Program-made: the position numbers and the translations under genes
The notes under the pieces: generated by a model
The model's input: the letters and a program-made list of their open reading frames with translations, nothing else
Told to the model about the DNA's origin: nothing
Databases searched by the model: none
In this document: positions 30,921 to 61,939 of the stretch, in pieces
Numbering within the stretch: the stretch's first letter is position 1
Layout: each line of letters opens with the position of its first letter
NCBI GenBank assembly: GCA_024137785.1
Contig: JAHRHZ010000025.1
Span: forward strand, 23,420,219 to 23,484,218
Length of the DNA: 64,000 nucleotides
Direction of reading: 5' to 3'
Source of the DNA: Ginglymostoma cirratum
Taxonomy: Eukaryota

Positions 30921-31057
30921 GCAAGCTTTACTTCACTGTCTTAAGGAGACAGTCCAACCTATGGAAATGTTGCAGTTTGTAGACTGCAGGTGATGTTCAC
31001 TGCATGTTTTGCACCAAAAAACAATTTGAACAGGAATCCACACACAATATAACAATG

Positions 31058-31155
31058 AGAGATAACAAGTTGTGGGGCTGGATGAACACAGCAGGCCAAG
31101 CAGCATCATAGGAGCAGGAAAGCTTCGCGTTTCGGGCCTAGACCCTTCATCAGAA
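31058..31155 (-). mobile_element. 98 bp PLE-derived mini-insertion with 14 bp TSD, starting at the hammerhead core
   Basis: TSD acaatataacaatg at 31044 and 31156; minus strand starts ttctgatgaagggtctaggcccgaaacgcg. Confidence 0.92.
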
Positions 31156-31667
31156 ACAATATAACAATGTTGGATCAAGATTCTATGATAGTTTCTAGGA
31201 TTAATTTTATATGTCTGTCTTAAGCGCAGCCAAGCACTTGGCATGTTTCAGTGTCTAATGGAAAAAGGTTGGCTGTATCCAGGAATCTTTCTGATGCCAC
31301 CCTCAACATTAATCACAAGCCAAGTTTGCACCTGTAGAGAGAAACATGCTGTCAGCGCTGACACTGCTATTTGCTCTCGGTTTCGCAATTCTATTAGGAG
31401 ACATCGTCTAAATATTCATCAGTGAAATTAGGAAATTTGACATAAGGAATGGTGCAACCTGGGAACTCTCCTCCTCCAGCAGCAGTACACCCGAGATCAA
31501 TTTCCAATTTTAAAACTTAGATTGGTAAACTGTTGGTAGGTAAACATTATTTGGGGCAAAGACCAGATCACCCATGATTTCATTGAGTGGCAGGTCAGGC
31601 TCAAAGGACAAATGGCTTCCCCCTGTCACTATATTCGTAAAATAGGATATATAATTTTACCCAGAGG

Positions 31668-32940
31668 TAGCAAGAATTGCAGATGCTGGAATCAGAGACA
31701 ACACAGTGTGGAACTGAAGGAACACAGCAGGCCAGGCAGCATCAGAGGAGCAGGAAAGTCAATATTTGGGGTCAGGACCCTTCATCAGAAACGGGGAGGG
31801 GGAAGGGAGCTGGGAAATAAATGGAGAGAGGAAGGGTAGGGCTGGGGAAGGTAGGTGGGATGGTGATAGGTTGGATGCAGGTAGACGGTGGTGGGGATTG
31901 GTCAGTGGGAATGGTGGGATGGATAGGTGGGAGAGAATGTGGGCAGGTCGTGTCAGGTCAAGGGAACCAGGATGAGAGGGAGGGTTGGATATGGAATGGG
32001 GCTGGGGGTGGGGAGATTTTAAAACTGGTGAATCTTATGTTCAGGCCATTGGGCTGTAGGGTCCTGAGGCAGAATATGAGGTGCTGCTCCTCCATGTGTT
32101 GCATGTGGTGTCATTGTGACACTGGAGGCAGTCCAGGATTGTCATGTCATCAAGGGAGTGGGAGTTAAAATGGTTAGTGACCAGAAAGTGTTGTCGTTTG
32201 TCGGGTACAGAGTACAGATGCTCCACAAAACGGTTCCCGCATCTGCGTTTGGTCTCACTGATGTAGAGGGGGCCACATTGGAAGCAACGGATACAGTAGA
32301 CCAAGTTAGAAGATGTACAGGAGAACCCCTGTTGAATATAGGAGGTTAACTTTGGGCCTTGAATGGGGGTGATGGGGGGGAGGTGTAGGGGCAGATGTAG
32401 CCCTTCCTGTGGTTGCAGGGAAAGGTGCCACGTGTGGGTGGGATTAGTGGAGACTGTGGAGCAGACAAGGGAGTCGCGGAGAGAGCGGTCCCTGTGGGTG
32501 GGAGGGAAATATCTCTTTGGCCGTAGGGTCAGATCGTAGGTGGCAGAAGTGGTGGAGAATGATACACTGGATGCGGAGGTTGGTGGCGTAATATGCGAGG
32601 ACCGGGGGACTCTGACTTTATTTTTGCTGGGGAGAGGGGTTTTGAGGGAAGAAGTGCAGGAAATGCAAGAGATGCAGTTGAGGGCATTTTTGATCACAAG
32701 AGGAGGGGACGTTGTGGTCCTTGAAATAGGAGGATAGCTGGGATGTCTCGGAGTGGAACACCCCATCTTGGGAGCAGACACAGCAGATGTGGAGGATTGA
32801 ATTCTTGCAGGAGGGTGAGTGAGATGAGGTGTAGTCCAGGTAGCTATGGGAGTTGGTGGGCTTGAATTAGATGTCAGTGTTGAGGCAGTTACCAGAGATG
32901 GAGACAGCGAGGTCCAGGAAGGAGAATGAGGTATCACACA
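31668..32940 (-). mobile_element. Penelope-like element 3' half (reverse transcriptase C-terminus, GIY-YIG endonuclease, 3' terminal repeat)
   Basis: SFLDLAVSISG..TDI*FKPTNSHSYLDYTSSHP; FSCTSSNLVYCIRCFQCGPLYISETKRR..RFVEH..VTNHFNSH. Confidence 0.93.
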
Positions 32941-33187
32941 GCAAGAGAGTGGCAAGGTGCAAATCAGTAAAACAGAAGACGAGATAAATCAAGGAGTAAA
33001 GACTTGAGTTTGTGAATTTTGCGTTATTGAAGATTGTAGGGAAGAAGTGTCACAAAGCAACTTTGAAAAGTTCATGACAAGTAAAGTTTATTAGCAAAAT
33101 AACAGCAGATTCCTTTTATTCAGAGAGAAAATTATGTCTTCAGCATCCCACGCACTCAGTTTCACCTCAAGATCGACCAAGAGTGTA

Positions 33188-33305
33188 AAGGTGCCAGTGT
33201 TGGACTGGGATGGACAAAGTCAAAAATCACACGACACAAGGTTATAGTCCAACAGGTTTATGTGAAATCACAAGCTTTCACAGCACTGCCCCTTCATCAG
33301 GTGAA
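33188..33305 (-). mobile_element. Terminal repeat of a second PLE-type family with hammerhead core
   Basis: Minus strand tcac-CTGATGA-a-ggggc agt gctgt-GAAA-gctt-gtga. Confidence 0.7.
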
Positions 33306-33554
33306 GGCAGGTGAATGTAAAAAAAAACAGAAAAATTATAGCATTAGGTCAATCAACAGTGATAAGTCCAAGTTTTCATGGAATTTTCTTTTTGAATGAG
33401 TAAAGAATTGTGATCGCTGCCAGCTCATCAGGGTATTGAGCTATCTGCAATTTTTTTATACCTTTACTTACCAAAATGATAAACATTTTAATGGTCACCA
33501 GGGCACTTACCAGATGGAGATTCCTATTCATTGCAAATAGTCAAACCAATTAAC

Positions 33555-33685
33555 AATCCTGAAGAAGGGTAATACTCAAAATGCTGACTTCTCCTCTCCT
33601 CTATATGCTGCCTGGCCTGCTGTATTCTTCCAGTCTCCGGTTTGTCTACCTTGGATTCTAGCATCTGCAGTTTTTTTGTCTCTGA
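33555..33685 (+). mobile_element. PLE terminal fragment, further family
   Basis: aatc-CTGAAGA-a-gggt aat actc-aaaa-tgct-gact..tgctgcctggcctgctgt..agcatctgcag. Confidence 0.75.
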
Positions 33686-34364
33686 TTGTATCTTCCTCAG
33701 CTGAAAGAGGTCAAGCTTTGAATATTCACCTGTAACATTTATTTCACGTTGACATAAGTGGGAATTTAAAGTACACTGGGATTTTTCATCTGATTTTTAA
33801 AAATAATTACCTTCGTTTTGAAAAAATGAAATAATTTTCAGTCATTGTTTAGACAAATTTAGTATGACAACAGCAGCTGCTTCAAGTCACTGGATCCAAT
33901 GCCCAAGGTTCCTTGTGGAGTATTTAGTTTTTATTGCTGTTTCTCTAGATAGGCTGAGAAGTAGTTATTTTTTAATGTGACCAGTGTTAAGCTGTAATTA
34001 CTCTATTAATTAGAAATGAGCCGAAATTAAAAGCTGGGGCTAGTTTCTGAAACAGATTGAGATTTTCTTTTACTCATAACTATTAATTTCAGTGATTAAA
34101 CATTACTGATTTGACTTTGACTTTATATGGAAACTGTCTTTAATTTCTTGGCCTTAACTTTCATAACAAAACCAATCACTGCCAAAGTCAGTGTAATTTG
34201 TATCATGCTGTAACTATATCAAGCGTTCATTGTCTGTTTACTGCTGGTGTTTCAATGTTAATGTTAGGGATGTTCTTCCCTTTACTGTCCTCCTTTACGA
34301 TGGAAAGTGCTCGTTGATGCTGGGTATAGGGCACCAGTTGTCCTGCATCATTGCTCCTCTGGGA

Positions 34365-34916
34365 GGGGCAATGGCATAGTCGTATTGGCACTACATTCAG
34401 GTAATGCCCTGGTGATCTTGAGTTTGAATCCCACTACAACAGATGGAGGAATTTGAATTCAATAACATCTGCAAACCTTGAGAAAGGGTTCTCGTGGCAC
34501 AATGGTAGTGTCCCTGCCTCTGAGCCAGAGCTCTGGGTTTAAGTCTCACCTGCTCCAAGCGTGTGTAATGACATCTCTGAGCAGGCCATCCAGAAAATCT
34601 CTGTAAACCTTGAGACACTGAACAGGATGATTAGAAAATACCTAAAGCTTGAGAGAGGGGGTCATGTGGGAAAGTGATAGTGTCCCTACCCCTCAGGCAG
34701 AAGACACAGGTCCAGCTCCCACCTGTTCCAGAGGTGTATCATAATACATTTGAACAGGTTGATTAAAAAATATTTTTGCAAACCTTGAGAGGGGGATCTT
34801 ATGGGGCTGTAGTATCTAAGCCAGGCAGCCTGCGTTCAAGTCCTACCTGCTCCAGTGGTATGTAACAATACCTCTGGATAGATTGACTAGTGTTTTTTTT
34901 TTGGTAAACTTCAGGA
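34365..34916 (+). repeat. Tandem cluster: one SINE head plus three diverged ~130 bp tRNA-like units
   Basis: Units at about 34486, 34655 and 34790, separated by the recurring spacer tg(c/t)aaaccttgaga. Confidence 0.75.
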
Positions 34917-35809
34917 TGGAGCATTGTTGGATTATTCAACTGAGAGTGTGGATGGTGGCATTACAACCAAGGCATTCCAGTCTGTATCCAATGTCGCATA
35001 GATATAATTTCCAACAGCAGTCAACAATTACTGACCATAAGCCAGAACGCTGCCTGATGATGTCTTTTCCAAGCCCAGAGGCTCTTTACATCCAGATCAT
35101 AGGTTAGCCAGCTGAACACAGAGCTGGAATTAATACAGTTCAATATCCTGGCAGACATCTGGATCATGAATGCAGTCCCTTAGTTGGCTGTATAATTCTG
35201 GTGGAAAGACAAATTTCAACCTCGCTTTAACACAATATGGAAAGTCCCTTATGATTATTAAAATAAATGTAGATCACGCAGGAGGAATGTAACAGCGCAA
35301 TTTAGTAAAAGAAGTGGAATATTGTATTGTTTAAATAAAATATACATGACATAAATGCATTAGTGATTGAATCCAACACTTTGATGTTGATATGAAGATT
35401 GTGCTTTTAAAGTTGTCTGAAAGCTATTGCAAAACAAAGTATTCCACCTTCCAGGTTATGAAGTGATCAACCATTTGACACTTTGCCAATTTCTTGAACA
35501 TTCAGTGACGTCCCACTGCACCCCACACTCACCACAAAAACAAACAATTTCTTTAACAGAACACAAACACCATCTGATGGTTACAAAGCTGCTGGAGCCC
35601 TGTTTCAAGTCTGATTGTCTGAACAGTTAATTCTCCAACTAATTCCAACAGTTCCAAATTCTAAAATTTCCATCAAAGAAACTACAGTACATTCCCCTCA
35701 AGCGATCGAAGTGCCCTACCTCAAAGGAATAGAGGGAAATAGAAAAAGCATGTGAAATAATCATGTTTTGTGATTTTAAAAGTCAGCGAATACAAACTTG
35801 AGCAAAGAC

Positions 35810-36985
35810 CGCCCTCAGAGTTTTTGGACACCTTACCTATAGGAGCATGTAATTACCTCACAGTAGATGCAACAAAGGTTCGCTGGTTGTTTCTTGAGGT
35901 GACAGCATCGTCTATAAGGAGAGTTGAGTAGAAAAGACTTATTTTCTCTGGAGTTCAAAAGAATGTGTGGTGATCTTGTTAAAATGCATGGAATTCTTTG
36001 ATGGCTTGATAAGGTAGCTGTTGAGAAGCTATTTACCCAGTTGAATAATTTGGTACTAGGAGTTAATTATTTCACAAAATCACAGAATTGTTAAGGTGCT
36101 GAAGGAGGCCATTTGGCCCATTAGATCTGTATCTGTTCTCTGATGAGCTTCAGGGCTTAGTGCAATTCTGCTGTGTTTCCCTGTAACCCTGCACATTATG
36201 TCTATTCAATCAGCCATTTAATGCCCTCTTAAATGCCTCAGTTCAGCCTGCCTCCAGCAAATTTTCAGACAGCACTTTCTAGATCCTAACGACTTACTGT
36301 GTGATTTTTTTTCTCACATTCTCCAATCTTCTCATCCATGGAATCATTCTCGTAAGAATTCTCCCAGAACTGTACACAACACTCCAGCTGAGGCTTAACT
36401 AATGTCTTATATAAGTTCAGCATAACTTCCTTGTTTTTGAACTCAATGCCCCTATTAATGAAGCCAAGGACACTGTGAAGATTACTTTGCTAACTGCTTT
36501 TCCTCCACATGTCCTTCAATTAATGACTTAACTCATGCACACCCAGGAGGCTCTGCTCCTGCACAGCAGTGCTACCTTTTACAATACCACTCTTTATTTT
36601 ATACTACCTCCATGTTCTTTCTGCCAAAGTGTATTACCTCACACTTATCCACATTGAACTTTGTCTGCCACCTATCTGCCAACTTTACCAACTTGTCTAT
36701 ACCTTTGTGAAATTCTACGTTGTCCTCATCAATTTACAGCTAAAGAGAAATTTCTCAAACTGTTATAAATCCTTAGAATTTTCTACCCCGGAAGGTATTC
36801 AGTCATTGAGTAAATTCAAGACTGTCATTTGTGGACAATTGAAAAGCAGATGGTATGGAAATTGAGCCAGAAGGTGATGGTGAGATACAAAATAATTTAA
36901 TTGAAGTTGTATTGACTGATGAAACAGTGCCAGAGAAACCTACGTCCTACTCCTATTCCTAGTTCTTCAGTTCCTATGTTCTTAA
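35810..36985 (+). mobile_element. Decayed CR1 with an antisense CR1 nested at about 36075-36735
   Basis: CR1 3' motifs on + at both ends; reverse-complement tail cacagaattg..aggaggccatttggccc at 36080. Confidence 0.7.
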
Positions 36986-37249
36986 CTAATGGAAATATTG
37001 AAGTTAGGGCATTGCTGACATTGCCACAATTGGCCAGAAATCAACTGTAGGAACGTGTGCCATTTTGATTGGATTTGTGTAAGCATACACAATTGTATTA
37101 CCCCTACTGTTTTTAACAATTCCGACTTTCTTCACTCTTAAGTCAAAAGTATTAATCTCTATTTCAATGAAGGGATCATTCTCAATTTAATCAGTTGTAA
37201 CTGGTTTATGTACAAAGAAATGGGTAGATATGGTAGTAATAATAGTGTT

Positions 37250-37870
37250 TCTTTAATTCATTCATGGGAATGGACATGGTTGGCTGGTCCAGCATTGATT
37301 GCACATCCTGGTTTCCCTTGAGAAGGAGGAAATGAGCTGCCCTGTTTGAACTGCTGCAATCCAAGTGCTGTAGATAGACCCACAATGTCGTGAGGGAGGG
37401 AGTTCCAGGATTTTGACCCAACAACAGCAAGGAACAGCTATATTGTTCCAAGGCAGAATGGTGAGTAGTTTTCAAGGAGAACTTACAGGTTGTGGTGATC
37501 CCATCTATCTGTTGCCCTTGTTGTTCTAGATGGAAGTGGTCATGGGTTTGGAAGGTGCTATCTAAGGAGCCTTGGTGAATTTCTACAGTGTACCTGACTG
37601 TCAGTGGTGGAGGGAATGGATGTGGTGCCAATCAAGCAGGCTGCTTTGTCCTAGATAATGTCAAGCTTCTTGAGTGTTGTTGGAGCTGCACCCTATCCAG
37701 GCAAATGGAGAGTATTCATCACACTCTTGACTTATGCTTTGTAGATGGTGGACAGGTTTTGGGGAATAACTCACTGCAGGATTCCTAGGGTCCTCTCTGC
37801 TCTTGTAACTACTGCATTTATATGGCTAGTCTAGTTCCATTTCTGGATGGGGGGATTCAGTGATAAGAGG
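37250..37870 (-). mobile_element. CR1-group (L2/Crack-like) LINE 3' end
   Basis: Reverse complement of the 54600-55197 family end. Confidence 0.8.
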
Positions 37871-38064
37871 AGAAAAGGAGAAGAACTAGTAGCAATGCTT
37901 CAAGATCCCTCTCATGGATTTTTATTATTAATCTTCACATTTACAGATGGGATGAATTTCTTCTCTGTCTGCTGGAATTGCTTTGCTGGGCACAATCTTA
38001 ACCTCACCTTCACTCTGAATGTCAACTTACTGAATCAGGAAATCAAATTGAGTCATATGTCGTG

Positions 38065-38690
38065 CAATATCGAAGAGGCTCTTCGGCGCATCAAGTCTGC
38101 ACTGACATAATCAAAACTGTCTCCTATGCACACTAATCCCACTTTCCAGCACTCAACCCATAACCTTGAATGTTATGACATTTCTAATGTTCACCCACTT
38201 ACTTTTTAAAAGTGGTGAGGTTTCCTGCTTCTACTACCCTCCCAGGTAGTGCATTTCAGCTTCCCACTACCCTCTGCTGAAAAAGTATTTTCTCAAATCC
38301 CTCTAAACCTTCAACCATTCAAAATATTAAAATGATGGCATCTTGTTATTGACCCTTCGAGACTGAAGAACAGCTGCTTCCTATCAACCTTATCCATGCC
38401 CCTCATAATCTTATACTTCTCAATCAGGTCCTCCTTCAGTCTTCTCTGCTCTAAAGTAAATAACACAAGCTGATCCAGCCTCTCTTCATAGATAGAGTGC
38501 TCCATCCCAGGCAATATCCTGGAGAATCTCCTCTGCACCCTATCTAGTTCAATCACATCCTTCTTACAGTACGGTAACCAGAACTACATGCAGCACACAT
38601 TTGTGGTCCAACCAAAGTTTTGTACAGTTTTCAACATAACTTTCCTGCTTTTATGATCCATGCCATGACTGATCAAGGCAAATGCTGTCA
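38065..38690 (-). mobile_element. CR1 3' fragment
   Basis: LDRVQRRFSRILPGMEH..YEERLDQLVLFTLEQRRLKEDLIE. Confidence 0.88.
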
Positions 38691-39739
38691 GGATAGCAAT
38701 GAATCCATAAGATCATAAGGTATCAGCACTGTGCAGACCTCCCAAGCCTGTTGTCAGTTAGTGAGTAATGTGAGAGGGTAAGCAGAGTGACATCACCTAC
38801 CCACTGGCATCATTCCCTAAAGTGGCAGGATTTAAATCTACCCTGGTTTTGACAGACTATGAATCCATGACAGAAGTCTTCACTATTCGATGTAAAATAG
38901 TGCTTAATTTGTAACATCAACCACAAGCAAGATTGACATGGGAAGTGTAGATATCAACAAGCCTGCACCAGTATAGAAGTTACAATCTCAGTGGAGACCA
39001 GTAAAATTAAAAAGGAGGGATCCAAAATCTTAGTTATTTACTGAAAGAATGAAGCAACAACATTCCATGGTTTAAAACAGAGGAATTTGTACTAACAAGA
39101 GTCAAATAAAGCAAACACAAAATACTATTTTAGATCACCTCCAATACTTCAACAGCCAGAATCAATTTAAGTCAAACATGAATTTCAAGGGAAATTGCAG
39201 TCAAATGTAAACTGTGAATTACACATTAACTGGCAGACAAAACTAAGATAGATTGTAACAATTGGCTCAGCAGTCCATGTAGCATACATTCTCAGTCATA
39301 AAGTCCTTCAAAAATCTTACTTCCACATAAAGAGTTCAGCCCCTCTCCATCTAGGATGAAGGGTGACCCCAGTTGAAATCAGCATACAATCAACCCAAGT
39401 TTCATGGGTACTATCTTCGCCATAAATAGTACATCTACTGAAACTACTCAGCATGGTCTGGATGACTTGGACCCACCAATGTCATCTTCAAGTAACGGTA
39501 ACAACTACAGCAAGTTATTCTCAGTTTCAGGATCGGGACTCGATTTTTTTCAGCTTCCTGATACTGCAGTCATCAACTGATACCAACCATATTGGATTGA
39601 TTTGTCTCCTTTTATAACTTGCAACCAGGTTTAGTCATGTTTTGGATTCCAAATCTTAATTTGTTCATTCCATTAGAAACAGGGAGGGTAAGTTTTCTCT
39701 CTCCATTTTCTTTTTCTGTTTCATCTGAATCTGTTACAT

Positions 39740-40255
39740 CTAGTTTTGGGTACCTCACTTGAGAAGGTATGTGAAGGAATTGGAGAGGGAGCAGAAAATA
39801 ATCATGAAAATGGTTCCTGATGCGGTCTTCAGAAAGGAAGACAAAATAGAGAAGTCAGGTCTGTTTCCCTTGCAGAAGGAAGGTTGAGAAGAGTTTGAAA
39901 GGGGTGTTCACAATCATGAGAGGTTGGGTGGATAGGGAGAAATTGTTTCCACTTGTGACAGGATTAATGAGCGAGCAAAGATCTTAAGTAATTGGCAAAA
40001 GAAGCAAAAGTGATGGGGCAAAATATTCTTCATGAAGTGAATAGTTATGGCTGGAATACACTGTCTGATAGTGTGGTTTAGGTAGGTTGAATCAAAACAT
40101 TGAAAGGGAAATTAGACTGCTTTCTAAAAAACATGCAGAGTTATGGGCAAAAGGCAGGACAATGGCATCAAAGGAATTACTCATCAGAGAGCTGATGCAA
40201 ATGTGATAGACTTAATGGACTCATATTGTGCTCTAACAATTCTGTGAATCTATGT
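39740..40255 (+). mobile_element. Decayed CR1 3' fragment
   Basis: CR1-like 3' ORF2 remnants and tail aattctgtgaatctatg. Confidence 0.65.
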
Positions 40256-40371
40256 CTCTATTTGGTTTCCTTGTTCTGTTTGTGTTTTCAGTTTGGGTCT
40301 GCCTAAAGAAATACAAACTTTAAAAGCACAGATTTCTTCAAAACCAATACATCCGTTTGCATTGCAAAGAA

Positions 40372-40470
40372 CAGTCACTGGGCTCGAAATGTTAACTCTG
40401 CATTCTTTGCACTGATGTTTGCAGACCTGCTGAGCTTCTCCAGCAATTTCTGTTTTTGTTTCAGACTTCC
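40372..40470 (+). mobile_element. PLE terminal fragment (5374 family)
   Basis: gtcactgggctcgaaatgttaactctg..gacctgctgagcttctccagcaatttctg. Confidence 0.75.
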
Positions 40471-40562
40471 GCTGTTATTTCTTTTACACTTAGTTTGATT
40501 TAATTTCTCTTTGTACAGTCTTTTGTTTCCTTTTAAATAATTAAATAAAAACCTTGGGTAGT

Positions 40563-40880
40563 GATAGGAGTGTGGAAGCAGGCAATTCAGCCCATTGAGT
40601 TTACACCAATCCTCTGAAGAGCATCCCACTCAGACCCATCCCCATAACTCTGCTCTTTTTATGGCTAATCCACCTAGCCTGCACATCCCTGGACACTACG
40701 AGCAATCCATATAATCTGCACATTGGATTATGGGAGGAAACTGGAGCACCAGGAGGAAACCCATGCAGACACAGGGAAAATGTGCAAACTTCACAAAGAC
40801 AGTCGCCGAGGATGGAATCAAACCCAGGTGCCTGGTGCTGTGAGACAGCAGTGCTAACCACTGAGCTACTGTGTCACCAT
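40563..40880 (-). mobile_element. HE1/V-SINE
   Basis: Reverse complement of head (gtgctaaccactgagc) and V domain. Confidence 0.9.
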
Positions 40881-41289
40881 GATCTAGGAAGTAGAGAGGA
40901 AAGTATCTAGATCGCACAGGTAAAGTCTAACAACTTGTTTTTCGTTTATGTTCAAGGACTGTTGCAGAACACAATAGGTCATTATGGGCAACAAGCATCA
41001 CCAGACTATTTTTCAACTATTTTTTGCTGATAATGAAGGAGTTCAGATGAGCATAAAGCAGAAAAAATGTTTGTGTTGTCAAAGTTTGGCATTATAAAAG
41101 GCATTAGGCACATGTAGTGTGAAGTTATTAAAATTAAATCTGTACCTTTCAACATATGAGCAAATGCAGATTTCAGCCATGTCCTTTTTCAGGAAATATA
41201 GGATACAAAAATAAACTTAAGCATTATACAATACAGTAAGAATCATCAAATCATACAATATGTTATCATTAAATACTTCAACGCAGTAC

Positions 41290-44479: not shown

Positions 44480-44645
44480 GTAACGTCACCATGGTACTAC
44501 CAGATCATAGAGAGAGATGAATGGTGGTGGCGTAACCTGAAGGTCACCACAGCCCAGGCAAGGGGAGACTTTGAGAAGAAGGGTCCTTCATAGTAACCTC
44601 AGCTGGTACTAGAATTGAATCCACACTGTTGGCAACACAAACCAT
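44480..44645 (-). mobile_element. Short tRNA-derived SINE, unclassified
   Basis: Reverse-complement B-box gaattgaatcc near 44612 with SINE-like body. Confidence 0.45.
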
Positions 44646-44649
44646 CCCC

Positions 44650-47849: not shown

Positions 47850-48770
47850 CTTCATGAGGGCAAAGGAGAGGGTGGATCCTGTCATGCTGTTCCTTGAGCA
47901 GACTGTCAAAGTCATTTGGCAGAATGCGCATCACTAGAACTTTCCAACAAGCACCAAGACATTGCATGGCTGGTGGTAAGAAGGGCATTACCTGTGAGAT
48001 TCTTTATGAACACCCGGACTTGCTGCACCACTGCACAATGCCCTCAAAGTGGCTGCAGGGGGATACAGACTGTCACACGCCTCCTTCTGGAATGTGCCTT
48101 TGCAACCGAACTCTGGAGAGAGATATAATGGTTTTTGTGAAGATTCACCCCAGTAGCTCTCTGACGCAGGACTCTGTGCTGTACGGTCTGCTCCCTAGGA
48201 TGCACTCCAAGACAAAAATCAACTGCGCCTGGAGGACCATCAACTGGATGAAAGATGCTCTTTGGTCTGCCTGAAACTTGTTGGCCTTCCAAAGCAAGGA
48301 GTTGACCTCAACTAAGTGTTGCAGACTGGCACATTCCAAGGTCCAGGACTACATGCTGAGGAATGCAACCTGTCCATCTTCTCACCGACCTATCTGCCCT
48401 CCCACCTCACTAACCAATCCCCACCACTCCCTACCTGCACTCACCTAGCACCATCTACCTTCCCCAGCTCCACCCCTCCTCCCTATTTATTTCTGAGGTC
48501 CCTTCAACCTCCCCATTTCCGAAGAAGGGTCCTGACCCGAAACATCAGCTTTCCTGCTCCTCTGATGCTGCTTGGCCTGCTGTGTTCATCCAGCTCCACA
48601 CGTATTATGTAAATATAGTCTTGTACAAGTTAGAAAAGCTAGATAGAGTCAAATTCCAATGTTTGTTTGTTTCTTCATATGCTACTTAACGGAACCAAAC
48701 TGCTTTAGTGACTATTTATGTAGATAAAAATATATTTATAAATAAAGTATGCTTTTGAAATAAAAATAAA
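47850..48770 (+). mobile_element. Tx1-type L1 LINE 3' end inserted in the Gypsy integrase
   Basis: ELSNKHQDIAWLVVRRALPVR..CPQSGC..TVTRLLLECAFATELW (zf-RVT-like); A-rich end at 48740-48770. Confidence 0.8.
48367..48610 (+). mobile_element. PLE 3' terminal repeat nested in the Tx1 fragment
   Basis: C-rich UTR then ccgaaga-a-gggtc ct gaccc-gaaa-catcagctttcctgctcc. Confidence 0.85.
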
Positions 48771-51209: not shown

Positions 51210-51600
51210 CATAGTTAACATGACGTACCATGAAATTTTAGCACAACCTTTTCTTTTCCTCTTCATTCATGGGCTGAGGGCATCACTGACCAGCCAGAAT
51301 TTATTGCCCATCGGGCAGTTAAGAGTCAACCATATTGCTGTGAGTCTGGAGTCACATATAGGCCAGACCAGGTACAGATGCCAGTTTCCTTCTGTAAAGG
51401 ATATTAGTGAACCAGATGGATATTTCCCCCCAACAATCAGCAATGAATTCATGGTCATCATTTGACTCTTTAATTCCAGATATTTACTAAATTCAATTTC
51501 CACCATCTGCTGCAGGATTTGAACCCAGGTCCCCAGAATAGTGTCTGTGTCTCTGGATTAACAGTCCAGCAATAATACCACTCGGCCATCACCTTCCCCA
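51210..51600 (-). mobile_element. tRNA-derived SINE, probably MetaSINE-type
   Basis: Reverse complement of the 10975 family: gggcagttaagagtcaaccatattgctgtgagtctggagtcacatataggccagaccagg. Confidence 0.8.
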
Positions 51601-51804
51601 CTTCCCATCTCGAACAAAGGATTCCTGAGTTTGTCTGTTTCTTTCTGACTACGCCACTGGCTTTGTGCAGGGCACTCGATACTCACAGTGTTCGTTCAGG
51701 GTGGAGCATGTGGTGAGCTTTTTCTGCACTGTTCACATCTTCCCTGGTGTACTTTTTTTTAACAGATCAGTGGATTGACCTGGTGGATCTCAAAGCAGTT
51801 TTTA

Positions 51805-51995
51805 TCCTCGATGGCAGTTTTCTTCTGATGTTAAGTACCAAGAAGGACCAGGAGGCCAAAGCATTAAACAGCAGAAACTTTATTTTGGAGGTGTCCACTC
51901 CACAAAGCAAACCCAAAACATCTAATGATGTCATCATTATGCCAAGTAATTGAACTCTGAACATGACTGTCTACCATACACAAATACACAACGAT
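51805..51995 (-). mobile_element. Possible primer-binding site and 5' LTR of the Gypsy element
   Basis: tcctcgatggca resembles the reverse complement of PBS tggcgacgagga; minus-strand AATAAA at about 51880; position fits upstream of gag. Confidence 0.35.
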
Positions 51996-52409
51996 GATGT
52001 TGCTATAATGGAGTTTCATCCTGTGCCACCTCAATGCTGTCAATAGGTTGTCTTCTTCTTTTCTCTCCCACTATCCCTCAGTATAGTCCCAGGCTTTATA
52101 GCTGGCAGGAAGGAAGCCTGCCCTATAGTGGAGCCTGTTAACTTCGGAGTTTTGCATTGGTGACCAGAAGGATGTTTGTAGCTGGAGGCCCACTCATGCT
52201 GTGTATCCAGCCAATGGGCAGCTTTACCTTCCTCAACTTGAACTTTCCCAGGGCCGAGGGTGGCAGGTAGGATGGAGGTGGAAGTCCTGGCCATCTCTGG
52301 AGAGTCGTGAGAGGAGACTTCCACGGAGGGTGCCCCATGTCCTTGTGAGTAAGGGATGCCTGGAATGAGGTTAAGATCCCTCATTCCCTCAATGCCAGCA
52401 TTCAATATT

Positions 52410-52540
52410 TTACCAATGTCATCATGGGATCTGTAATGTTCACCTGAATTTAGGGCAGCACCTTGGTTTAACATCTTATCCAAAGTACATTGTCTGTAAT
52501 AATGCACCCTTTTTCAGCCCTCAGTATTGTGCTGAGCTAC
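52410..52540 (-). mobile_element. DeuSINE fragment
   Basis: catgggatct..ttcacctga..cttggtttaacatcttatccaaa is the reverse complement of the Deu domain. Confidence 0.6.
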
Positions 52541-53004
52541 ATAAATCAGTGTGAAGCAGATCCTGATGAAGTTGCCTGAAGTTATAGCATTAAAAAAACC
52601 CATCAATACTCAACCTCAGTCTTTGACAATTTTACTATAATGTTTTCAAGATGTAACAGGAAGCATACAACATTACCAAATGGAAACAAAATTAACCGAA
52701 ACAAGCTATTGGACATGAACCAGGCAACTATAAAATAAGTGACATATATTTGTTAATTAACCGTCAAAGTATCTCTGCAAGCAAACAAATCTGTGTAGAA
52801 TTACAATGTCACAAGCTATAAAAAATTGTGTTAATTTGAGCTGGAGAGGCTACTGTCACAAATCTTTTGCAAATTAAGAGTCTGAAGAGTCTAGAAGTTG
52901 TGGTATAGTGGTGAAATTTTAGTTCAAAGGCATTTTTACATTCTGATCAGGTAATTTTGTGCTGGTGAGTTCAGTCAACTGCATGTCAAATCTAAGCATT
53001 GGGA

Positions 53005-53280
53005 TTCTCAGTCTGGGCTGAGTTAGGAGCAACAATCCAGGTGCTACCACGAGACTTTGTGCCCCAGGCTAAAGGAAGAAAAAGCAGCTCCTTGTCCAGA
53101 ATGCTGTCCAATGACCCCTGCTAGAAAAGAAATGATTGTGTGTTCAAATGAAGGCAATTCCTCGTGCTCAAACAGCTAGGTAATGTTCACTGTCTTGGTT
53201 CACGAAGGAGGAATAGACATTGAACAAGGTGCTGGAGAGTGCAGGAGGGCATGCCAGGAGCAGCACCAGGCATACCTTTG
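53005..53280 (+). mobile_element. Old SINE-like repeat (same family as 14490)
   Basis: gtctgggctgagttag..ccaatgacccctgctagaaa. Confidence 0.45.
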
Positions 53281-53289
53281 GATGAAGTG

Positions 53290-55197
53290 TCAACCAGGTA
53301 GAGGACCTACCACCAGGGCTATCTGCATAGCAAACAGCATAAGCAAGTGATAGGCAGAGCTAAGTAACCCCATAAACAACAGATCAGATCTAAGCTCTGT
53401 AGTCCTGACTCACCCACTCATGAATGTTGGTGGATGATTAAACAACACACTGAAGGAGGAGGCTCCACAAAGATCCTCATCCTCAATGATGCAAAAGCCC
53501 GGCATATCAGTACAAGAGATAAGTACAAAAGGCTGTAGCATTTTTCAGCAATCTTCAGAAGTACAAGTGAATGATCCATCTTGGCCTCCTCCCGTTGTCT
53601 CAGCATTACAGATACCAGTCTTCAGCTAATTCGATTCACTCCATGTAATATCAAGAAACAGTTGGAAAGACCAGATACTGCAAAGGCTATGAGCCCTGAA
53701 AACATTCCGGCAATAGCTTTGAAGACTTGTGCTCCAGAACTTGCCGTTCCCCTAGCCAGGCTGTTGCAGTACAGTTACAACACTGGTACCTACCCAACAA
53801 TGTGGAAAATTGCCCAAGTGTGTCCTGCACACAAAAAGCAGGACAAATCCAATCCGGCCAATTACTGCCCCATCAGTCTACTCTCAATCATCAGTAAAGT
53901 GATGGAAGGTGTCATCATCAGTGCTATCAAGCAGCACCTGCTCAGCAATAACCTGCTCAGTGATGCCCAGTTTGGGTTCCGCCCAGGCCATTCAGCTCCT
54001 GACCTCATTACAGCCTTGGTTCAAACATGGGCAAAAGCGCTGAATTCCAGAGGTGAAGTGAGAGTGACAGCCCTTGATATCAAGGCTGCATTTGTTGAAG
54101 TGTGCCATCAAGGAGCCCCAGCAAAACTGGAATCAATGAATATTGAGGCAAAACTCTCCAGTGGTTAGAGTCATACCTGCCACATAACAAGATGGCCATG
54201 CTTGTTGGAGGTAAGTCATCTCAGCTCTAAGACATCTCTGCCGGAGTTCCTCAAGGCACTGTTCTAGGTCTCAACCATTTTCAGCTGCTTCATCAATGAC
54301 TTTCCCTCCATCATAAGGTCAGAAGTGGGGATGTTCACCGATGATTGCACAATGTTCAGCACCATTCGTGACTCCTCAGATACTGAAGCAATCCATGTTC
54401 AAATGCAACAATATCCAGACTTGGGCTGACAAGTGGCAAGTAATATCCACACTACACAAATGCCAGGCTATGACTATCGCCGATAAAAGACAATCTAACC
54501 ACCACACCTTTACAATCAATAGTATTACAATCACTATCAACATCCTGGGGGTTACCATTGACCAGAAACTCAACTGGACTCACCACATAAACACAATGGC
54601 TGCAAGAGTAGGTTAGAGGCCAGAAATACTGCGGCAAGTTAGTCACCTCCTGACTCCTCAAAGCCTGCCCACCACAAGTCAGGAGTGTGATGGAATACTC
54701 CCCACTTGCCTCGATGGGTGCAGTTCTAACAACTCTCAAGAAACTTGACACCATCAAGACAATGTAGCCCCCTTGATTTACATGACATCAACAAGCGTCC
54801 ACTCCCTCCAGCACAGACGCTCAGTAGCAGCAGTGTGTACTATCTACAAGACACACTGCAGAAATTCACCCAACATTCTCAGACAGCTCCTTCCAAACTC
54901 ACGACCACTTCCATCTAGAAGAACAAGGGCAGCAGATACATGGGAACACCACCATGTGCAAGTTGCCCTCCAAGCCACTAATCATCCTGACTCAGAAATG
55001 TATCAATGTCCCTTCACTGTCGCCGTGTCGAAATCATGGAATTTCCTCCCTAATGGTATTGTGGGTCAACCTACAGCAGGTGGACTGCAGTGGTTCAAGA
55101 AGGCAGCTCACCACCACCTTCTCAAGGGCAACCAGGGTTGGGCAATAAATGATGGCCATGCAGCAAAACACACATCCCATAAATGAATAAAAAAAAG
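53290..55197 (+). mobile_element. CR1-group (L2/Crack-like) LINE, RT domain to 3' end, with stops and frameshifts
   Basis: WKIAQVCPAHKK..NYCPISLLSIISKVME..QFGFRPGHS..LDIKAAF; GVPQGTVLG; MFTDD; A-rich terminus. Confidence 0.92.
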
Positions 55198-55829
55198 GAA
55201 TATGGGGTGGAAGTAGACTCATGTAGATTATAATCAACAGCATTGACCTGTTAGAGCAAATACTATTATGCTGAAACGTCTATGTAATTTACAAAATGGG
55301 TTAGTACACATTTCCTTATTTAGTATGTTTTATACAATAGGCCAAACATTAGTGCACTTATAAAGGGTGGTTTCGCACTCCCGGGGAAACAGCACTCACA
55401 AGTTTTCTTTACTTCAAATTGAATGGGTGATAACTCAGAGATCACACAGATACAATTCCCCGTGATGTTGTGATGCTCTCCCTTTGATGGTTGATCCCCA
55501 TTGTGATTGCAGACCTTGCAAGTAGATCTCCGGAAAAGATGGTGATTATTTGCCAACTCATCTGGCTGAGTCAGTTCTTTGCCTGTTGCCTCTCTCATTC
55601 TTAGTAGATGTGTGCTTTTGCTGGAAGGATACTGAAGTGAGATCATTGGATGACGGTAGCAGCACAACATTCTGAAATATAGTTGGCATCAAAAAATTTA
55701 AACTTTCTGATGTCAAGGGCAGTTTAGGCAATAAACTATGTAAAAAATGTATCTCCAGTGCACTTAATTTGCAAATGAACATTACCACACAATCTGAAAG
55801 AACAATAAGCAGACAAAGAGCATAATTCT

Positions 55830-56048
55830 AGATAACAAGCATGGGGCTGGATGAACACAGCAGGTCAAGCAGCATCATAGGAGCAGGAAAACTTGACGTT
55901 GTGGGATTTTTTTTTTTCTGATGAAGGGTCTAGGCCCGAAACGTCAAGTTTTCCTGCTCCTATGATGCTGCTTGACCTGCTGTGTTCATCCAGCCCCATG
56001 CTTGTTATCTCGGATTCTCCAGCATCTGCAGTACCTTTTATCTCTGAT
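55830..56048 (+). mobile_element. Young fold-back PLE mini-element (219 bp) with 17 bp TSD
   Basis: TSD acaaagagcataattct at 55813 and 56049; arm 55830-55900 is the reverse complement of about 55940-56009; ~37 nt tail only on the right arm. Confidence 0.95.
55915..55948 (+). ncRNA. Minimal type I hammerhead ribozyme motif, core intact
   Basis: ttt-CTGATGA-a-GGGT ctag GCCC-GAAA-CGTC-aag; predicted cleavage after C55945; activity untested. Confidence 0.7.
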
Positions 56049-56991
56049 ACAAAGAGCATAATTCTTCTTGGTTTCCCTCCATCGTTATTGGCAACTGCTC
56101 AAAATTCGCAAGTTTCTATTCTATACACTTGAGCAGAAACTATGAATGTGAATACTCTTGTTCACCTGAGGGGTTATTGAAGCTGCCCTTACCTGAGGCA
56201 CATTCTCATTCATGAACACAGCTTCCAGTAGGTGTCACTAGAAGGCAACCAGGAGCCAGAAACCTGTCTGACTATGATTCAAAGGTGCTGAGATCATTTA
56301 TGGCACCAATTCCATGTGTGATTAAGAATACAACTGATAGCAATACGTTTTGCCATGTATAGTCTCCAGTGGAAACTGAAATACAAAGATTTGTGGCCAG
56401 GCTGAAGATTCAACATTAGACTGTGTAAGATCCTGCCAATTATTTACTGTTACAATGCGCACTGACATCATTTTGACTTGGAATATCTTTAAACAACTGT
56501 TTTTTTGAACTGATCTAGGAAAATGCTTATTACCACAGCATACCTGAGTACAGGTCAAACATTATCACATCCGAATTTTATAAAACATTCTCAAACTTTT
56601 TTTTAAACTTTTGCATTTTACTACTTGGCTTCAAGTACATCTCTTGTGTTCGGTGCCTTAAATTCCCTTAGTAAATGTGTTGACTGATGGGGTTCAGGAA
56701 TCATAAACTTTACATTAACTGCTCTCAGTTGGATTTTGAGAATCTGGATTATCTGTTAACTATATATAGCCATAACCTGATCTGAAAATCTGCATCTGCT
56801 CAATGGAATTCAGATTTAATGGTATAAATGTTGCTAACTAGCTCTTGGAAGCATTGGATCCAAATTAAAAGAAGAACATGATAATGGAGACTAAAATCAA
56901 ATTTCATTCTTCTTATTTCTTTTCTCCAAACTTTAGTGGAATTTTGAGAGCTAAATTCTACAATCTTGATAATTTTTGATGAAAATCAAAT

Positions 56992-57480
56992 AAAATCATA
57001 GAATTCTACAATGCGGGAGGGGGCCATTTGACTCATCGTGTCTGTATTGGCTCCTGAAAGAAATGCCCGACTAATCCCATTCTCCATCTGAGGAAGGGTC
57101 ACCGGACCCGAAATGTTAATTCTGTTTTCTCCTTCACAGATGCTGCCAGACCTGCTGAGCTTTTCCAGCAACTTTGTTTTTGTTCCCATTCTCCAGCCCT
57201 ATCTCTGTAGTCCCCTGAATTTGTCACTTTTATCAAATAAAGACCCAGCTCTGTTTTGGAACCTCCGATGGAATCTGCCTCCATCACTCGCCCAGGCATC
57301 ACATTCCAAATCCTAACAACTGTCACCTCACTCCTAGTTTTCTTGACCCCTAGTTACTCTCATACCAACTAGCAGAAACAGAATATCCTTCTTTACCCTG
57401 TCAAAATTGTTCAGAACTTTGAACACCTCAATAAAGTCACCTCTTAATCTTCTTTGCTCCCAGGAGAAAAAGCCCAAGTG
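56992..57480 (-). mobile_element. CR1 3' fragment
   Basis: LGFFSWEQRRLRGDFIEVFKVLNNFDRV; VVRIWNVMPGRVMEA. Confidence 0.85.
57087..57183 (+). mobile_element. 97 bp PLE-derived mini-insertion with 12 bp TSD, starting at the hammerhead core
   Basis: TSD tcccattctcca at 57075 and 57184; begins t-CTGAGGA-a-GGGTC accg GACCC-GAAA-tgtta. Confidence 0.92.
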
Positions 57481-57509
57481 CTTAAAATTTGAAGACATTT
57501 CTAGCTTTA

Positions 57510-57890
57510 AGAAAAGAGCGAGTCTATGTCTTATTGAAATATATAGGATTTCCAAGGGACTTGACAGGTTAAATACTGAGAATATGTTTGCCCTTATAGG
57601 GAAATTTAGAAGTAGGGACAGAGTTTTGAAATAAGGTGCAGATGAGGAGGAATTTCTTCTCTCAGAATATGGTTAAGTTTTGAAATCCCATACTCTGGAA
57701 AGCAGTGGAAACTGAGTTATTGAGTATATTCATAGCTACGTTTTGGCAGATTTTTGATCTACAAGGATTCAGGGGACAGGCAGAAATGTAGAGGTAGGGC
57801 CAATCAGCCATGATTTTCATGAACAGCAGAGCAAGCTCAAAAGGCTAAATGTTCTCCTCCTGTTCCTTCTTTTTTATGTTTTTATGTAAC
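57510..57890 (+). mobile_element. Decayed CR1 3' fragment
   Basis: LIEIYRISKGLDR; tail tcagccatga..ctcctgttcct. Confidence 0.7.
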
Positions 57891-58843
57891 ACTGAGAAAC
57901 GGTTGGCCTTCATTTTGTCCTTGTAACCCAATTTGCTTTGGGAACACTACTTTCATTTCAAGGCTGGTTGAGTTGTTCTCACCCTAGGGCACACTGCAAA
58001 GCTTTAACTTCTTTAGCAGTGCTTGAATTTATTTAATTACCTTTCTTGTGCCTTCTTTTCATTTTTTTTCCCAGTTCATCCACCCAGGCTGAAAGTATTT
58101 TTCAGGCAACTTCGAGGAGGTCTGTTCCTAGACTTCAGCACGTAGATTTTTATAGCCAGTTACTAAAAGGAGTGAGCTGTATGTCCGTCTCCATCTCTTG
58201 ACATTGTAATGAGATTAGGGATTATCATGCAGGAAGAATTCTGAAAGACAATGACAGGAGAACCAATACATTATGCTATGTAATATCTGCTGTGATATTG
58301 ATCTCATGTGAAATGGGCTCATCATGAATCAGCAGTCAATTTAATCACCATACCCAACTTCCTTTCTACTAAGGTTCAACACTTGATTGTTCAAATCCCT
58401 TTTTAGAGACTCATTTTCTAATCTGTTTGCTACTTTTACAAAGTTAAAAATCAAGAACAATATTTTTCAAGTCAGTGGAAATTTAAAAACTGGTGCAAAG
58501 AAAAATCTAGTCAGTTTGCTTTTTGCTATGTTTTATGGCGCTGGCACTTCCATCTCCACAAAATAATTATTGGATCTCATGAAGGGAGCTGAAACCCAGA
58601 CCTGCCTTTACTAAAATGAGGTTGTGGGTCTCAATTGGGGTCGCATACATCGGCACAGGCAGTTTTTACTATCAGTTTAAGTGCGAACTGAAGGAGCTAT
58701 ACTGTCTGCTGTATTTCTCAATGAGTAATTTTCACAATTAACACTAAACTAACAGTTGACAGAGACAAGTCCTCACTCAGGTGCTATTTGTGTATAGTTA
58801 AAGGAAAGGTATTTTCATCCACTCCCACCTATAAACTGTGTGG

Positions 58844-58938
58844 GGTAACAAGGTGTAGAGCTGGATGAACACAGCAGGCCAAGCCGCATCAGAGGAGCAG
58901 GAAAGCTGACATTTCGGGCCTAGACCCTACTATCTCCT
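58844..58938 (-). mobile_element. 95 bp PLE mini-insertion with 15 bp TSD at the terminus of another PLE
   Basis: TSD ctataaactgtgtgg at 58829 and 58939; inverted arm followed by the tail remnant tactatctc. Confidence 0.85.
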
Positions 58939-58944
58939 CTATAA

Positions 58945-60392
58945 ACTGTGTGGAGCTGGAGGAATGCAGCAGGCCAGGCAGCATCAGAGGAGCAGGAAAG
59001 CTGATGTTTCGGGTCGGGACCCTTCCTCAGAAATGGGGGAGGGGAAGGGGACTCTTAAATAAGTAGAGGGGGGTGGGAGTAGCGGATAGGGTGGGAGAGA
59101 AGACGGACAGGTCAATGAGATGGGGATGAGAGGGGGCTCTGGTCTTGGGATGAGGTCAGGGGTGGGGAGATTTTGAAGCTAGTAAAGTCCACATTGAGAC
59201 CATTGGGTTGTAGGCTTCCAAGACGGAATATGAGGTGCTGTTCCTCCAGTTTCCGGGTTTGTCCCAGATGTCCTTGGATTTCAAGGACCACAACATCCCC
59301 ACCTCAGAGGTCGAAAACGCCCTTGACCATATCTCTTGTGCTTCCCGTACCTCAGCCCTCACACCCCCTCCCCGCAATAAAAACAAAGACAGAATTCCCC
59401 ATGTCCTCTCGTATCACCCCATTAACCTCCGGATTCAACGCATCATTCTGCGCCACTTCCTCCACCTGCAATCTGACCCCAGTACAAAGGATATATTTCC
59501 CTCCCCACCCTTATCTGCCTTCCGGAGGGACCATTCTCTCTGCGACTCCCTCATCCGCTCCACACTCCCCACGAGCCCCACCACCCCCGGCACTTTTCCC
59601 TGCAACCACAGGCAGTGCTACACCTGCCCCTACACCTCCCCTCTCACCTCCACCCCAGGCCCCAAAAAAGACCTTCCACATCAAACAGATGTTCACCTGC
59701 ACATCCTCTAATGTGGTCTATTATATCCGCTGTTCCTGATGTGGCCTCCTCTACATCGGGGAGTCAAAGTGGAAGCTCAGAGACCGCTTTGTGGAGCACC
59801 TGCGCTCAATTCACGACAAACGACAACACCTCCCGGTCGCGAACCACTTCAACTCCCCCTCCCACTCCCTGGACGACATGTCCATCCTGGGCCTCCTCCA
59901 GTGTCAAAACGATGCCACCTGAAAACTGGAGGGGCAGCACCTCACATTCCACCTTGAAAGCCTACAATCCAATGGTCTCAATGTGGACTTTACTAGCTTC
60001 AAAATCTCCCCACCCCCAACCACGTCCCAAGACCAGCCCCCCTCTCTGATCCCCGCCTCATTGACCTGACTGTCTTCCCTCCCACCTAACCTATCCTCCC
60101 ACCTCACTGATCAATCCCCACCCCTACATACCTACACTCACCTTTACTAGCTTCATCCCGGCCTCGTTGACCTGTCTGTCTTCCCTCCCACCCTATCCGC
60201 TCCACTATCTACTTGCTATCACAGCCTGTCCCTCTCTCTATTTATTTAAGAGCCCCTTCCCCTCCTCCATTTCAGAAGAATGGTCCAAACCCGAAATGTC
60301 AGCTTTCCTGCTCCTCTGATGCTGCCTGGCCTGCTGTGTTCCTCCAGCTCCACACTGTGTTATTTCAGACTCCAGTATCGGCAGTTCTTAGT
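58945..60392 (+). mobile_element. Penelope-like element with 5' inverted arm (58945-59255, minus) and sense GIY-YIG plus 3' repeat (59260-60392)
   Basis: MFTCTSSNVVYYIRCS*CGLLYIGESK..RFVEH..VANHFNS; acctataaa at 58827 and 60393 as possible TSD. Confidence 0.92.
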
Positions 60393-60904
60393 ACCTATAA
60401 ATTGCATTGTCCTCCTTCTCCTGCTTAAAGGCAATGACAGTTGGACTGCATTTCAGTCCAAACCCTTCAGTAAGGAACCTAGAGACCATTATTCCCAAGT
60501 GAGCCAAGGAACTGAATGCCGGCAGCTGCCAATAAATTGAAGCTGCTTCAGTTAGATCCAATTCTATCTTCATCTGGCATCTTCACACTTCTACACAAGG
60601 AGAGCATTTTCAAAGATTAAAAATAATCTTCTCAAAGTGTCCATGTCACTCTTTTTTAAACTAAAATGAATGACATCAAAGGAATATCAAGCACAAATTG
60701 GCTTATTCTGTCGAAAGGGACATTAATGCATCTATCTCTTAGGCAAAATTACTAGGGGGCTACAAAAGTGAGCAACCAATGAGAAACCAACCAGTTACAA
60801 ATATATCAGAGATAAAAGGTACTGCAGATGCTGGAGAATCCGAGATAACAAGCATGGGGCTGGATGAACACAGCAGGTCAAGCAGCATCATAGGAGCAGG
60901 AAAA

Positions 60905-60938
60905 CTTGACGTTTCGGGTCTAAACCCTTCATCAGAAA
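60905..60938 (-). ncRNA. Minimal hammerhead ribozyme motif, core intact
   Basis: Minus strand ttt-CTGATGA-a-GGGT ttag ACCC-GAAA-CGTC-aag. Confidence 0.7.
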
Positions 60939-61689
60939 TGGGGGAGGGGAAGAGGGTTCTGAAATAAATAGGGAGAGAGGGGGAGGCGGATAGAGGAGAA
61001 GATAGGTGGAGAGGAGGCAGACAAGTTGAAGAGGCGGCGATGGAGCCAGTAAAGATGAGTGTAGGTAGGGGGGTAGGGAGGAGATAGGTCAGTCCAGGGA
61101 GGACAGACAGGTCAAGAGGGCGGGATGAGGTTAGTAGATAGGAGATGGGGGTGTGGCTTGAGGTGAGAGGAAAAACAGGTTAGGGAGGTGGAGATGAGCT
61201 GGGCTGGTTTTGGGATGCGGTTGGGGGAGGGGAGACTGTGGCATTGCAGGAGGCCCAGGATGGACATGTCATCTGAGGAATGTGGATTTCACAAGAACCC
61301 TGCAGCCCAATGGCATCAATGTGGATTTCACAACAATCCTGCAGCCCAATGGCATCAATGTGGATTTCACAAGCTTCAAAATCTCCCCTCCCCCAACCGC
61401 ATCCCAAAACCAGCCCAGCTCATCTCCACCTCCCTAACCTGTTTTTCCTCTCACCTCAAGCCACACCCCCATCTCCTATCTACTAACATCATCCCGCCCC
61501 CGTGACCTGTCCGTCCTCCCTGGACTGACCTATCTCCTCCCTACCCCCCTACCTACACTCACCTTTACTGGCTCCATCCCCGCCTCTTCGACTTGTCTGC
61601 CTCCTCTCCACCTATCCTCTCCTCTATCCATCCTCTATCCGCCTCCCCCTCTCTCCCTATTTATTTCAGAACCCTCTTCCCCTCCCCCA

Positions 61690-61723
61690 TTTCTGATGAA
61701 GGGTTTAGGCCCGAAACGTCAAG
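61690..61723 (+). ncRNA. Minimal hammerhead ribozyme motif, core intact
   Basis: ttt-CTGATGA-a-GGGT ttag GCCC-GAAA-CGTC-aag. Confidence 0.7.
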
Positions 61724-61939
61724 TTTTCCTGCTCCTCTGCTGCTGTTTGACCTGCTGTGTTCATCCAGCCCCATGCTTGTTATCTCAGTTACAAATATAC
61801 CCGTGACTGCAACAACACCCAATACATAATCCAATACAGGACTTTTAGATTGCCTCAGATTGGTATCAGGTCACCCATAAGTACCTTTGCCAACTCTAAC
61901 TAGGTGCATTCTGGACGTTTCAACAGATGGCCACTCAAT

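Follow-up and report, generated by a model that had tools for sequence, protein, structure and literature searches.

Short insertions of Penelope-like elements (PLEs) are scattered through a 64,000-nucleotide stretch of the genome of the shark Ginglymostoma cirratum (contig JAHRHZ010000025.1, positions 23,420,219 to 23,484,218; hereafter the window), and several of them consist of two truncated copies of one element end, placed head to head between target-site duplications (TSDs). We think it probable, if by no means certain, that these two-armed copies are 5'-truncated insertions of GIY-YIG PLEs that arose by coordinated twin priming, the two target strands having been extended on element RNA from two different but paired start sites. 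The evidence includes an asymmetry of the ends. In the five clearly two-armed copies (C, F, G, K and L in the list below) element 3' ends lie at both TSDs, and a short terminal tail is present on exactly one of the two ends in every case (5/5), an outcome with a probability of at most 0.5^5 = 0.03 if the ends had chosen freely, or 0.016 when copy E is counted; asymmetry this strict argues that priming was coordinated and not independent. A first-pass annotation of the window had arranged six insertions as one graded series with a shrinking tailed part, and had proposed that the two target ends prime independently on two RNA ends, one tailed and one tail-less.

Anatomy of the insertions and their target sites

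A profile of the element's end module, built from the copies themselves, gives 18 strong matches (E < 1e-17) and one weak match in the window, and the 18 matched halves make up 13 loci. Copies A, C, D, E, F and G are the six insertions of the first-pass annotation; H, I, J and N lie in the same span, and K, L and M outside it.

31044..31169 (-): copy A, tail-less solo, family 1; 98-bp insert at 31058-31155, which starts at helix I of the hammerhead and stops at the tail-less end; TSDs 31044-31057 and 31156-31169, 14 bp, perfect match
55813..56065 (both strands): copy C, two-armed, family 1; tail-less arm 55830-~55905 (-), tailed half 55915-56048 (+), tail 56012-56048, T-run 55907-55917; TSDs 55813-55829 and 56049-56065, 17 bp, perfect match
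57075..57195 (+): copy D, tail-less solo, family 2; insert 57087-57183, 97 bp; TSDs 57075-57086 and 57184-57195, 12 bp, perfect match
58829..58953 (-): copy E, family 1, inside the end of the F arm; tail-less arm 58844-58928, with a 10–11 nt piece at 58928-58938; TSDs 58829-58843 and 58939-58953, 15 bp, perfect match
58827..60404 (both strands): copy F, two-armed, family 1; tail-less arm ~58949-59259 (-), tailed half 59260-60392 (+) holding the reverse transcriptase (RT) thumb, a CX4CX2C linker, a broken GIY-YIG endonuclease, the 3' untranslated region, hammerhead and tail; TSDs 58827-58838 and 60393-60404, 9 bp exact or 12 bp with 1 mismatch, E set aside
60792..61799 (both strands): copy G, two-armed, family 1; tailed half 60806-61280 (-), tail-less half 61281-61785 (+); TSDs 60792-60805 and 61786-61799, 14 bp, perfect match
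31662..32950 (-): copy H, tailed, family 1; RT C-terminus and endonuclease, without arm; TSD not found
33558..33685 (+): copy I, tailed short copy, family 1; starts at the hammerhead; TSD not found
48368..48610 (+): copy J, tail-less, family 1; 243 bp, without arm; TSD not found
40363..40480 (+): copy N, decayed short copy, family 2; partial tail; TSD not found
5358..5622 (both strands): copy K, fold-back, family 2; tail-less arm (-) and tailed half (+), both beginning at helix I; TSDs of 11 bp, 1 mismatch
16840..17088 (both strands): copy L, fold-back, family 2; full tail-less arm (-), tailed half (+) a little shorter; TSDs of 14 bp, 2 mismatches
24258..24385 (+): copy M, tailed short copy, family 2; starts at helix I; TSD not found

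The six insertions first described were borne out at about the positions and lengths given for them, as was the restriction of the tail to one arm. Two further claims held in part. Tail-less 3' ends fall within about 2 nt of one alignment column in seven of nine cases, F and K being the exceptions, and the tail has the expected length of about 35–37 nt in C, G and I (36–37 nt) but not in H (34 nt) or F (about 28–32 nt). The pattern is not general in the span, since H, I, J and N show neither arm nor TSD. When 1494 random boundary pairs were scored as a null for TSDs, the best score was 8, which the TSDs of A, C, D, E and G exceed; on the same scoring the one-sided copies H, I, J, M and N have no TSD above chance. 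The TSDs are 72% AT, compared with 58% for the window. A decayed copy at 29554-29604 (-) weakly matches the end module in its tail region (E 3e-4).

Contigs from four public runs, representing organism A and a related species, organism B, were compared over 55300-60600, a stretch that leaves copies A and G outside, and 220,044–364,595 contigs per run aligned to it. In both organism-B runs one 921-nt contig covers 55300-55813 and then directly 56050-56284; the 236 bases skipped correspond to the 219-bp insert of C together with a single 17-bp TSD, and exactly one TSD copy remains where the flanks meet. The empty site that had been foreseen was thus found for one of the six insertions. Contigs of organism A enter C, D, E and F at their ends, and empty sites of D, E and F were not seen in organism B, whose contigs stop or diverge before them. 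The six insertions are genuine, and C postdates the split from organism B. They can be used as presence/absence markers, C distinguishing organisms A and B.

The notion of a single graded series did not survive. Two families are present, family 1 comprising A, C, E, F, G, H, I and J and family 2 comprising D, K, L, M and N; D differs from its nearest copies K, L and N at 19–25 of about 95 columns. Divergence between an arm and its partner runs from 0/71 in C (71/71 identical) through 3% in G (382/394 identical) and 9% in F to 14–18% in K and L, so that these are separate events of different ages, although G does not exceed C significantly (Fisher p 0.23). The TSD of E spans the left TSD of F together with five bases of the F arm, and E must therefore have inserted into the end of that arm. 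What was read as a series is a set of unrelated events, drawn from two families and of several ages, that had been arranged in order. To judge from the alignments, the two halves of one insertion come from one subfamily in C, G and K, the arm and main half of K being mutual nearest copies. A reading of H and I together as a single two-tailed fold-back was rejected, as they belong to different subfamilies, differ at 31/92 positions and have no common TSD. D sits within another high-copy repeat at 56990-57700, where depth is far above that of the flanks, and several copies landed in older repeats.

The fold-back structure and TSD reported for G stand, but at 505 bp its tail-less half proved longer than the tailed one (475 bp), in which an internal stretch of about 95 bp is deleted, equivalent to residues 421–451 of the protein relative P0002 (see below). 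A 39-bp tandem repeated 2.4 times (61279-61373) occupies the 5' start of the tail-less half; it is the only tandem in 55300-62200, and reiterative copying and later duplication are candidate origins.

Element identity and the 5' ends at hammerhead helix I

On sequence grounds, the insertions appear to be truncated ends of GIY-YIG PLEs with a Neptune-type linker and a minimal hammerhead; the PLE identity assigned at first pass is upheld by the GIY-YIG domain, the RT-bearing relative P0002, the linker, the hammerhead and the one-sided tail. They are dead-on-arrival, ordinary dead copies. F and H carry the end of the open reading frame (ORF), and the copies in the window are truncated and broken. 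With X read at its two stops, F matches PF01541 (GIY-YIG) at E 2e-4 and 22.0 bits, just under the cut-off of 22.6. There are 29 protein relatives among 43 candidates, the named ones coming from whale shark and zebra shark and being 55–75% identical. In the best relative, P0002, GIY-YIG passes the cut-off at 355–432, while RVT_1 at 1–121 (E 9e-5) is below it; in tblastn with P0002, F is covered at 73–76% and H aligns to residues 131–466. A CCHH motif has its two cysteines inside GIY-YIG, H reading YCIRCFQCGPLYI...EHL...NHF and F likewise, with a stop between the cysteines. Frame 2 of F places the CX4CX2C linker CNHRQCYTC ahead of the endonuclease, and the linker pattern is present in 9/29 relatives, the others being partial or decayed. 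Since a CX2-5CxxC linker before a C-terminal GIY-YIG is described as the mark of Neptune and Nematis types (PMC8557442), family 1 would be of Neptune/Nematis type by its linker, the choice between the two clades being a matter for an RT tree.

Assignment of family 2 (D, K, L, M and N) to the PLEs is suggested by its alignment to family 1 ends, its hammerhead, its tail and its layout, the coding part being absent from its copies in the window. Pfam searches with short in-frame pieces gave no match, nor did a protein search with the translated end module, which might have placed the tail of these elements inside an ORF. Each unit carries a predicted minimal hammerhead ribozyme, which fits the minimal hammerheads of PMC4209133. 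Eight core positions are invariant in 14/14 aligned copies, and helices I and II reach 86.6% pairing (4/8 pairs show two-sided changes), against 12–56% for slid controls that are lenient, the structure having been drawn from these same sequences. Rfam did not detect the hammerhead at E up to 1, returning only weak microRNA-type matches, all on fold-backs, and the end-module RNA folds no better than its shuffles (z -1.0 to +1.2). Pattern scans for further copies returned 0 and 0 in viral contigs and 0 in one metagenome scan; seven metagenome loci were dropped as chance, sharing only a 21–25 letter pattern in GC-rich DNA.

The 5' ends of the copies pile up at helix I, a point that the first-pass annotation did not raise. 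In nine of the 18 halves the first base is no more than about 5 nt upstream of the CUGA core, where helix I has its base, and in family 1, where upstream sequence exists, 3/11 halves start there (binomial P 0.007 to 1e-5, according to the range assumed). Ribozyme cleavage was rejected as the source of these ends, as none (0/18) lies at the predicted cut site, and a cap-derived G was rejected for want of a consistent extra G. Across the four runs, 1201–1826 contigs per run have long loose ends before 57087 that agree at 0.37, with the last 4–5 letters common, which suggests that family-2 copies mostly start at this point; loose ends are expected at the boundary of D anyway, and it is the low agreement alone that is informative. 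Strand-change joints in the contig comparison were not used, many breakpoints tracking mismatches of D itself. Helix I may be either an RNA start or an RT stop. The solos measure 97–98 bp because their 5' end is fixed there; their description at first pass as a limiting product accounts for the missing second half but not for this fixed length.

The intron of Drosophila Penelope is described as ending at the 5' end of helix I (PMC4209133), which we take as a lead only. A polypyrimidine tract in G (61640-61666) lies upstream of the hammerhead core by about 26 nt, ends in TTTCAG and resembles a 3' splice site, and family-2 starts follow CAG in two copies. At its 5' start the tailed half of C has a run of 11 T where other copies have 3 T, which may reflect RT slippage at a stop point. 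A third hammerhead-bearing short element, at 33190-33312 (-), is unrelated in sequence to families 1 and 2 and also begins near helix I; its possible 9-bp TSD with 1 mismatch (33181/33313) scores 6, not clearly above chance.

Elsewhere in the window there is a 284-bp inverted duplication (888-1171 and 1945-2228; 95% identity, AT-rich, without a long ORF), a 342-bp direct repeat at 97% accompanied by a 54-bp direct repeat (6664-7115 and 8575-8916) that resembles a local duplication, and a set of broken RT-like frames of a LINE-type element (53575-55186) with a related copy at 37248-37846.

Coordinated twin priming as the probable mechanism, and its alternatives

Under coordinated twin priming, the element enzyme would nick both target strands 9–17 bp apart, in a staggered manner that leaves 3' overhangs. 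One cDNA would start at a far site on the RNA, so including the tail, and the other at a near, tail-less site about 35 nt upstream, and the two, of the same polarity, would grow into the gap, one from each start site, until their ends were joined in the middle by end-joining. The start sites would be obligatorily paired, most simply by a dimer bound to one RNA, and failure of one primer would leave one-ended, one-sided products. At helix I the RT would either run off the 5' end of the RNA or meet a strong stop, yielding solos of 97–98 bp when the tail is absent and of about 133 bp when it is present. Priming from both target ends, as proposed at first pass, fits the head-to-head geometry, the TSD-flanked tail-less solos and in vitro data on another PLE (PMC11167929). 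The two other parts of that proposal fare less well: independent priming is at odds with the mixed pairs, and by analogy with the one PLE studied in vitro the two end points are likely to be internal start sites and not RNA ends. A bolder version we advance only tentatively, as a possibility that may well prove wrong: that PLE integration is obligatorily coupled twin priming by one dimer, which engages on a single RNA two fixed sites separated by about 35 nt, one for each strand, and that the major template RNA begins at helix I, the abundant 97-bp and 133-bp units being run-off products. If true, a single step, coupled twin priming on such a template, would explain the inverted pseudo-long terminal repeat (pseudo-LTR), the one-sided tail and the TSD, with need of neither hairpin self-priming nor endonuclease trimming.

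A number of points weigh against coordinated twin priming. The sample comprises only five two-armed copies and two TSD-flanked solos, and H, I, J and N in the span, as well as M, are without detectable TSD. The tail-less end of F is about 5–9 nt short, at a place where target and element letters coincide, and that of K about 5 nt long. The tail remnant claimed for E (tactatctc, 58928-58936) is plausible but weak: it matches two tail ends at 7/9 letters, as do 1086 of 20000 random 9-mers (p ~0.05), and a motif look-up for the tail of E's subfamily in the 29 relatives was empty. Halves do not always pair, the F arm being nearer J (10/90 differences) than the main half of F (13/90), the L arm nearer M, and the tail-less half of G having one site in common with older copies; a two-RNA event or decay could produce such cases. 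Deletion at the hairpin centre after insertion can also shorten halves. Finally, the element studied in vitro is a Poseidon, of another clade, for which PMC11167929, in the text available, reports no strand difference in start site and no test of pairing within one event.

Priming from a single end has been proposed in PMC3846280 and, for the tail, in PMC8557442: the cDNA, or an antisense template, would self-prime at a palindrome and copy back, and the endonuclease would resolve the hairpin such that one end keeps the tail. Such a fold-back would account for both the strict asymmetry and near-identical halves such as those of C, and in C, F, K and (counting the piece beyond its deletion) G the tailed half indeed extends 5' to the same point as the arm or beyond it. 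It requires, however, that the arm be contained within the tailed half, a rule violated by L and E, in which the tail-less half extends further 5' than the tailed part, while A and D have perfect TSDs yet no tailed half that could have served as a template. Later deletion could rescue L and E, and A and D less easily. Neither F nor G shows an evident palindromic junction, and in vitro both strands were extended on sense RNA (PMC11167929); we regard a fold-back origin as unlikely. Alternatively, the short members might be remnants of full fold-backs that later lost their hairpin centres, their sizes reflecting decay and not integration. Palindromes are unstable, which favours this account, as do the internal deletions seen in halves of G and F. 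Microhomology-mediated deletions of Penelope copies are also reported in PMC3846280. Yet for each of A and D one would have to suppose a deletion with one boundary precisely at the TSD and the other at helix I, and C, younger than the split from organism B, still has identical halves, which leaves decay a decidedly improbable source of the sizes. As to the independent choice of a tailed or tail-less RNA 3' end by each target end, it would explain both kinds of solo and the geometry of both ends, and start sites were alike between strands in vitro (PMC11167929). Against it stand the 5/5 mixed pairs and the finding in the same study that starts are internal to the RNA, added 3' sequence leaving the main product unchanged; we consider it very unlikely.

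Relation to known elements

In LINE-1 twin priming, both target 3' ends prime on element RNA to give a 5' inversion inside the TSD. The resulting pieces are adjacent and non-overlapping and the second site is variable, whereas the shark pieces overlap almost fully and their start sites are fixed. Among PLEs, the known insertion unit has a 5' truncation, an adjacent inverted truncated copy, a 30–40 bp tail at one end and a TSD (PMC8557442, PMC3846280); a 34–37 bp repeat is described in PMC2377424 and the layout is summarised in PMC8969392, while the accessible text of PMC8557442 calls the origin of the inverted repeats and one-sided tail unresolved. This unit of endonuclease-positive PLEs, of which Pen2a_Av is an example, resembles the shark copies in its 5' truncation, inverted copy, one-sided tail and hammerhead within the pseudo-LTR, and copy F shares the CX2-5CxxC-type linker before GIY-YIG with Neptune/Nematis PLEs. 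However, rotifer TSDs are given as 8–10 bp (PMC8557442, PMC3846280), compared with up to 17 bp in the shark, and rotifer solos are described as without TSDs or flanking captured DNA, whereas the tail-less shark solos are TSD-flanked. The shark units are also mostly tiny and half of their 5' ends lie at helix I, unlike the described PLE unit.

The protein of Poseidon PAc from Anolis carolinensis nicks and extends both target strands in vitro, with RT starting at two internal RNA sites between which the tail is the intervening stretch; uncleaved RNA is the main template, a dimer is predicted, and the steps after initiation are left open (PMC11167929, Frangieh 2024). PAc and the shark copies are alike in a hammerhead just upstream of the tail and AT-rich targets, and under twin priming they would also share nicking of both strands and two start sites, although PAc belongs to the Poseidon clade and family 1 appears to be Neptune-type. 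In the available main text of that study the inverted copy, TSD and one-sided tail are not derived from paired priming, and a literature search found paired priming for PLEs stated nowhere, key older papers being outside its reach. Animal non-LTR retrozymes (bioRxiv 10.64898/2026.07.22.740005) are, like the shark units, short hammerhead units related to PLE pseudo-LTRs, but they are described as head-to-tail tandem arrays, whereas the shark units are dispersed, TSD-flanked, single or head to head, and none begins at the cut site. Identity with these retrozymes was rejected, there being no head-to-tail hammerhead units among the 18 halves.

Shark genomes hold very many short copies, enough for both the pairing rule and the pile-up of 5' ends to be put to a genome-wide count, and the value of these insertions is as a test bed for PLE integration, including in the existing in vitro system. 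Set beside the systems above, the inverted pseudo-LTR, the one-sided tail and the TSD were known already, as were, in vitro, the nicking of both strands and their extension, with two start sites on either side of the tail; what the shark copies add, modestly but testably, is a genomic link between the anatomy of PLE insertions and two-site priming.

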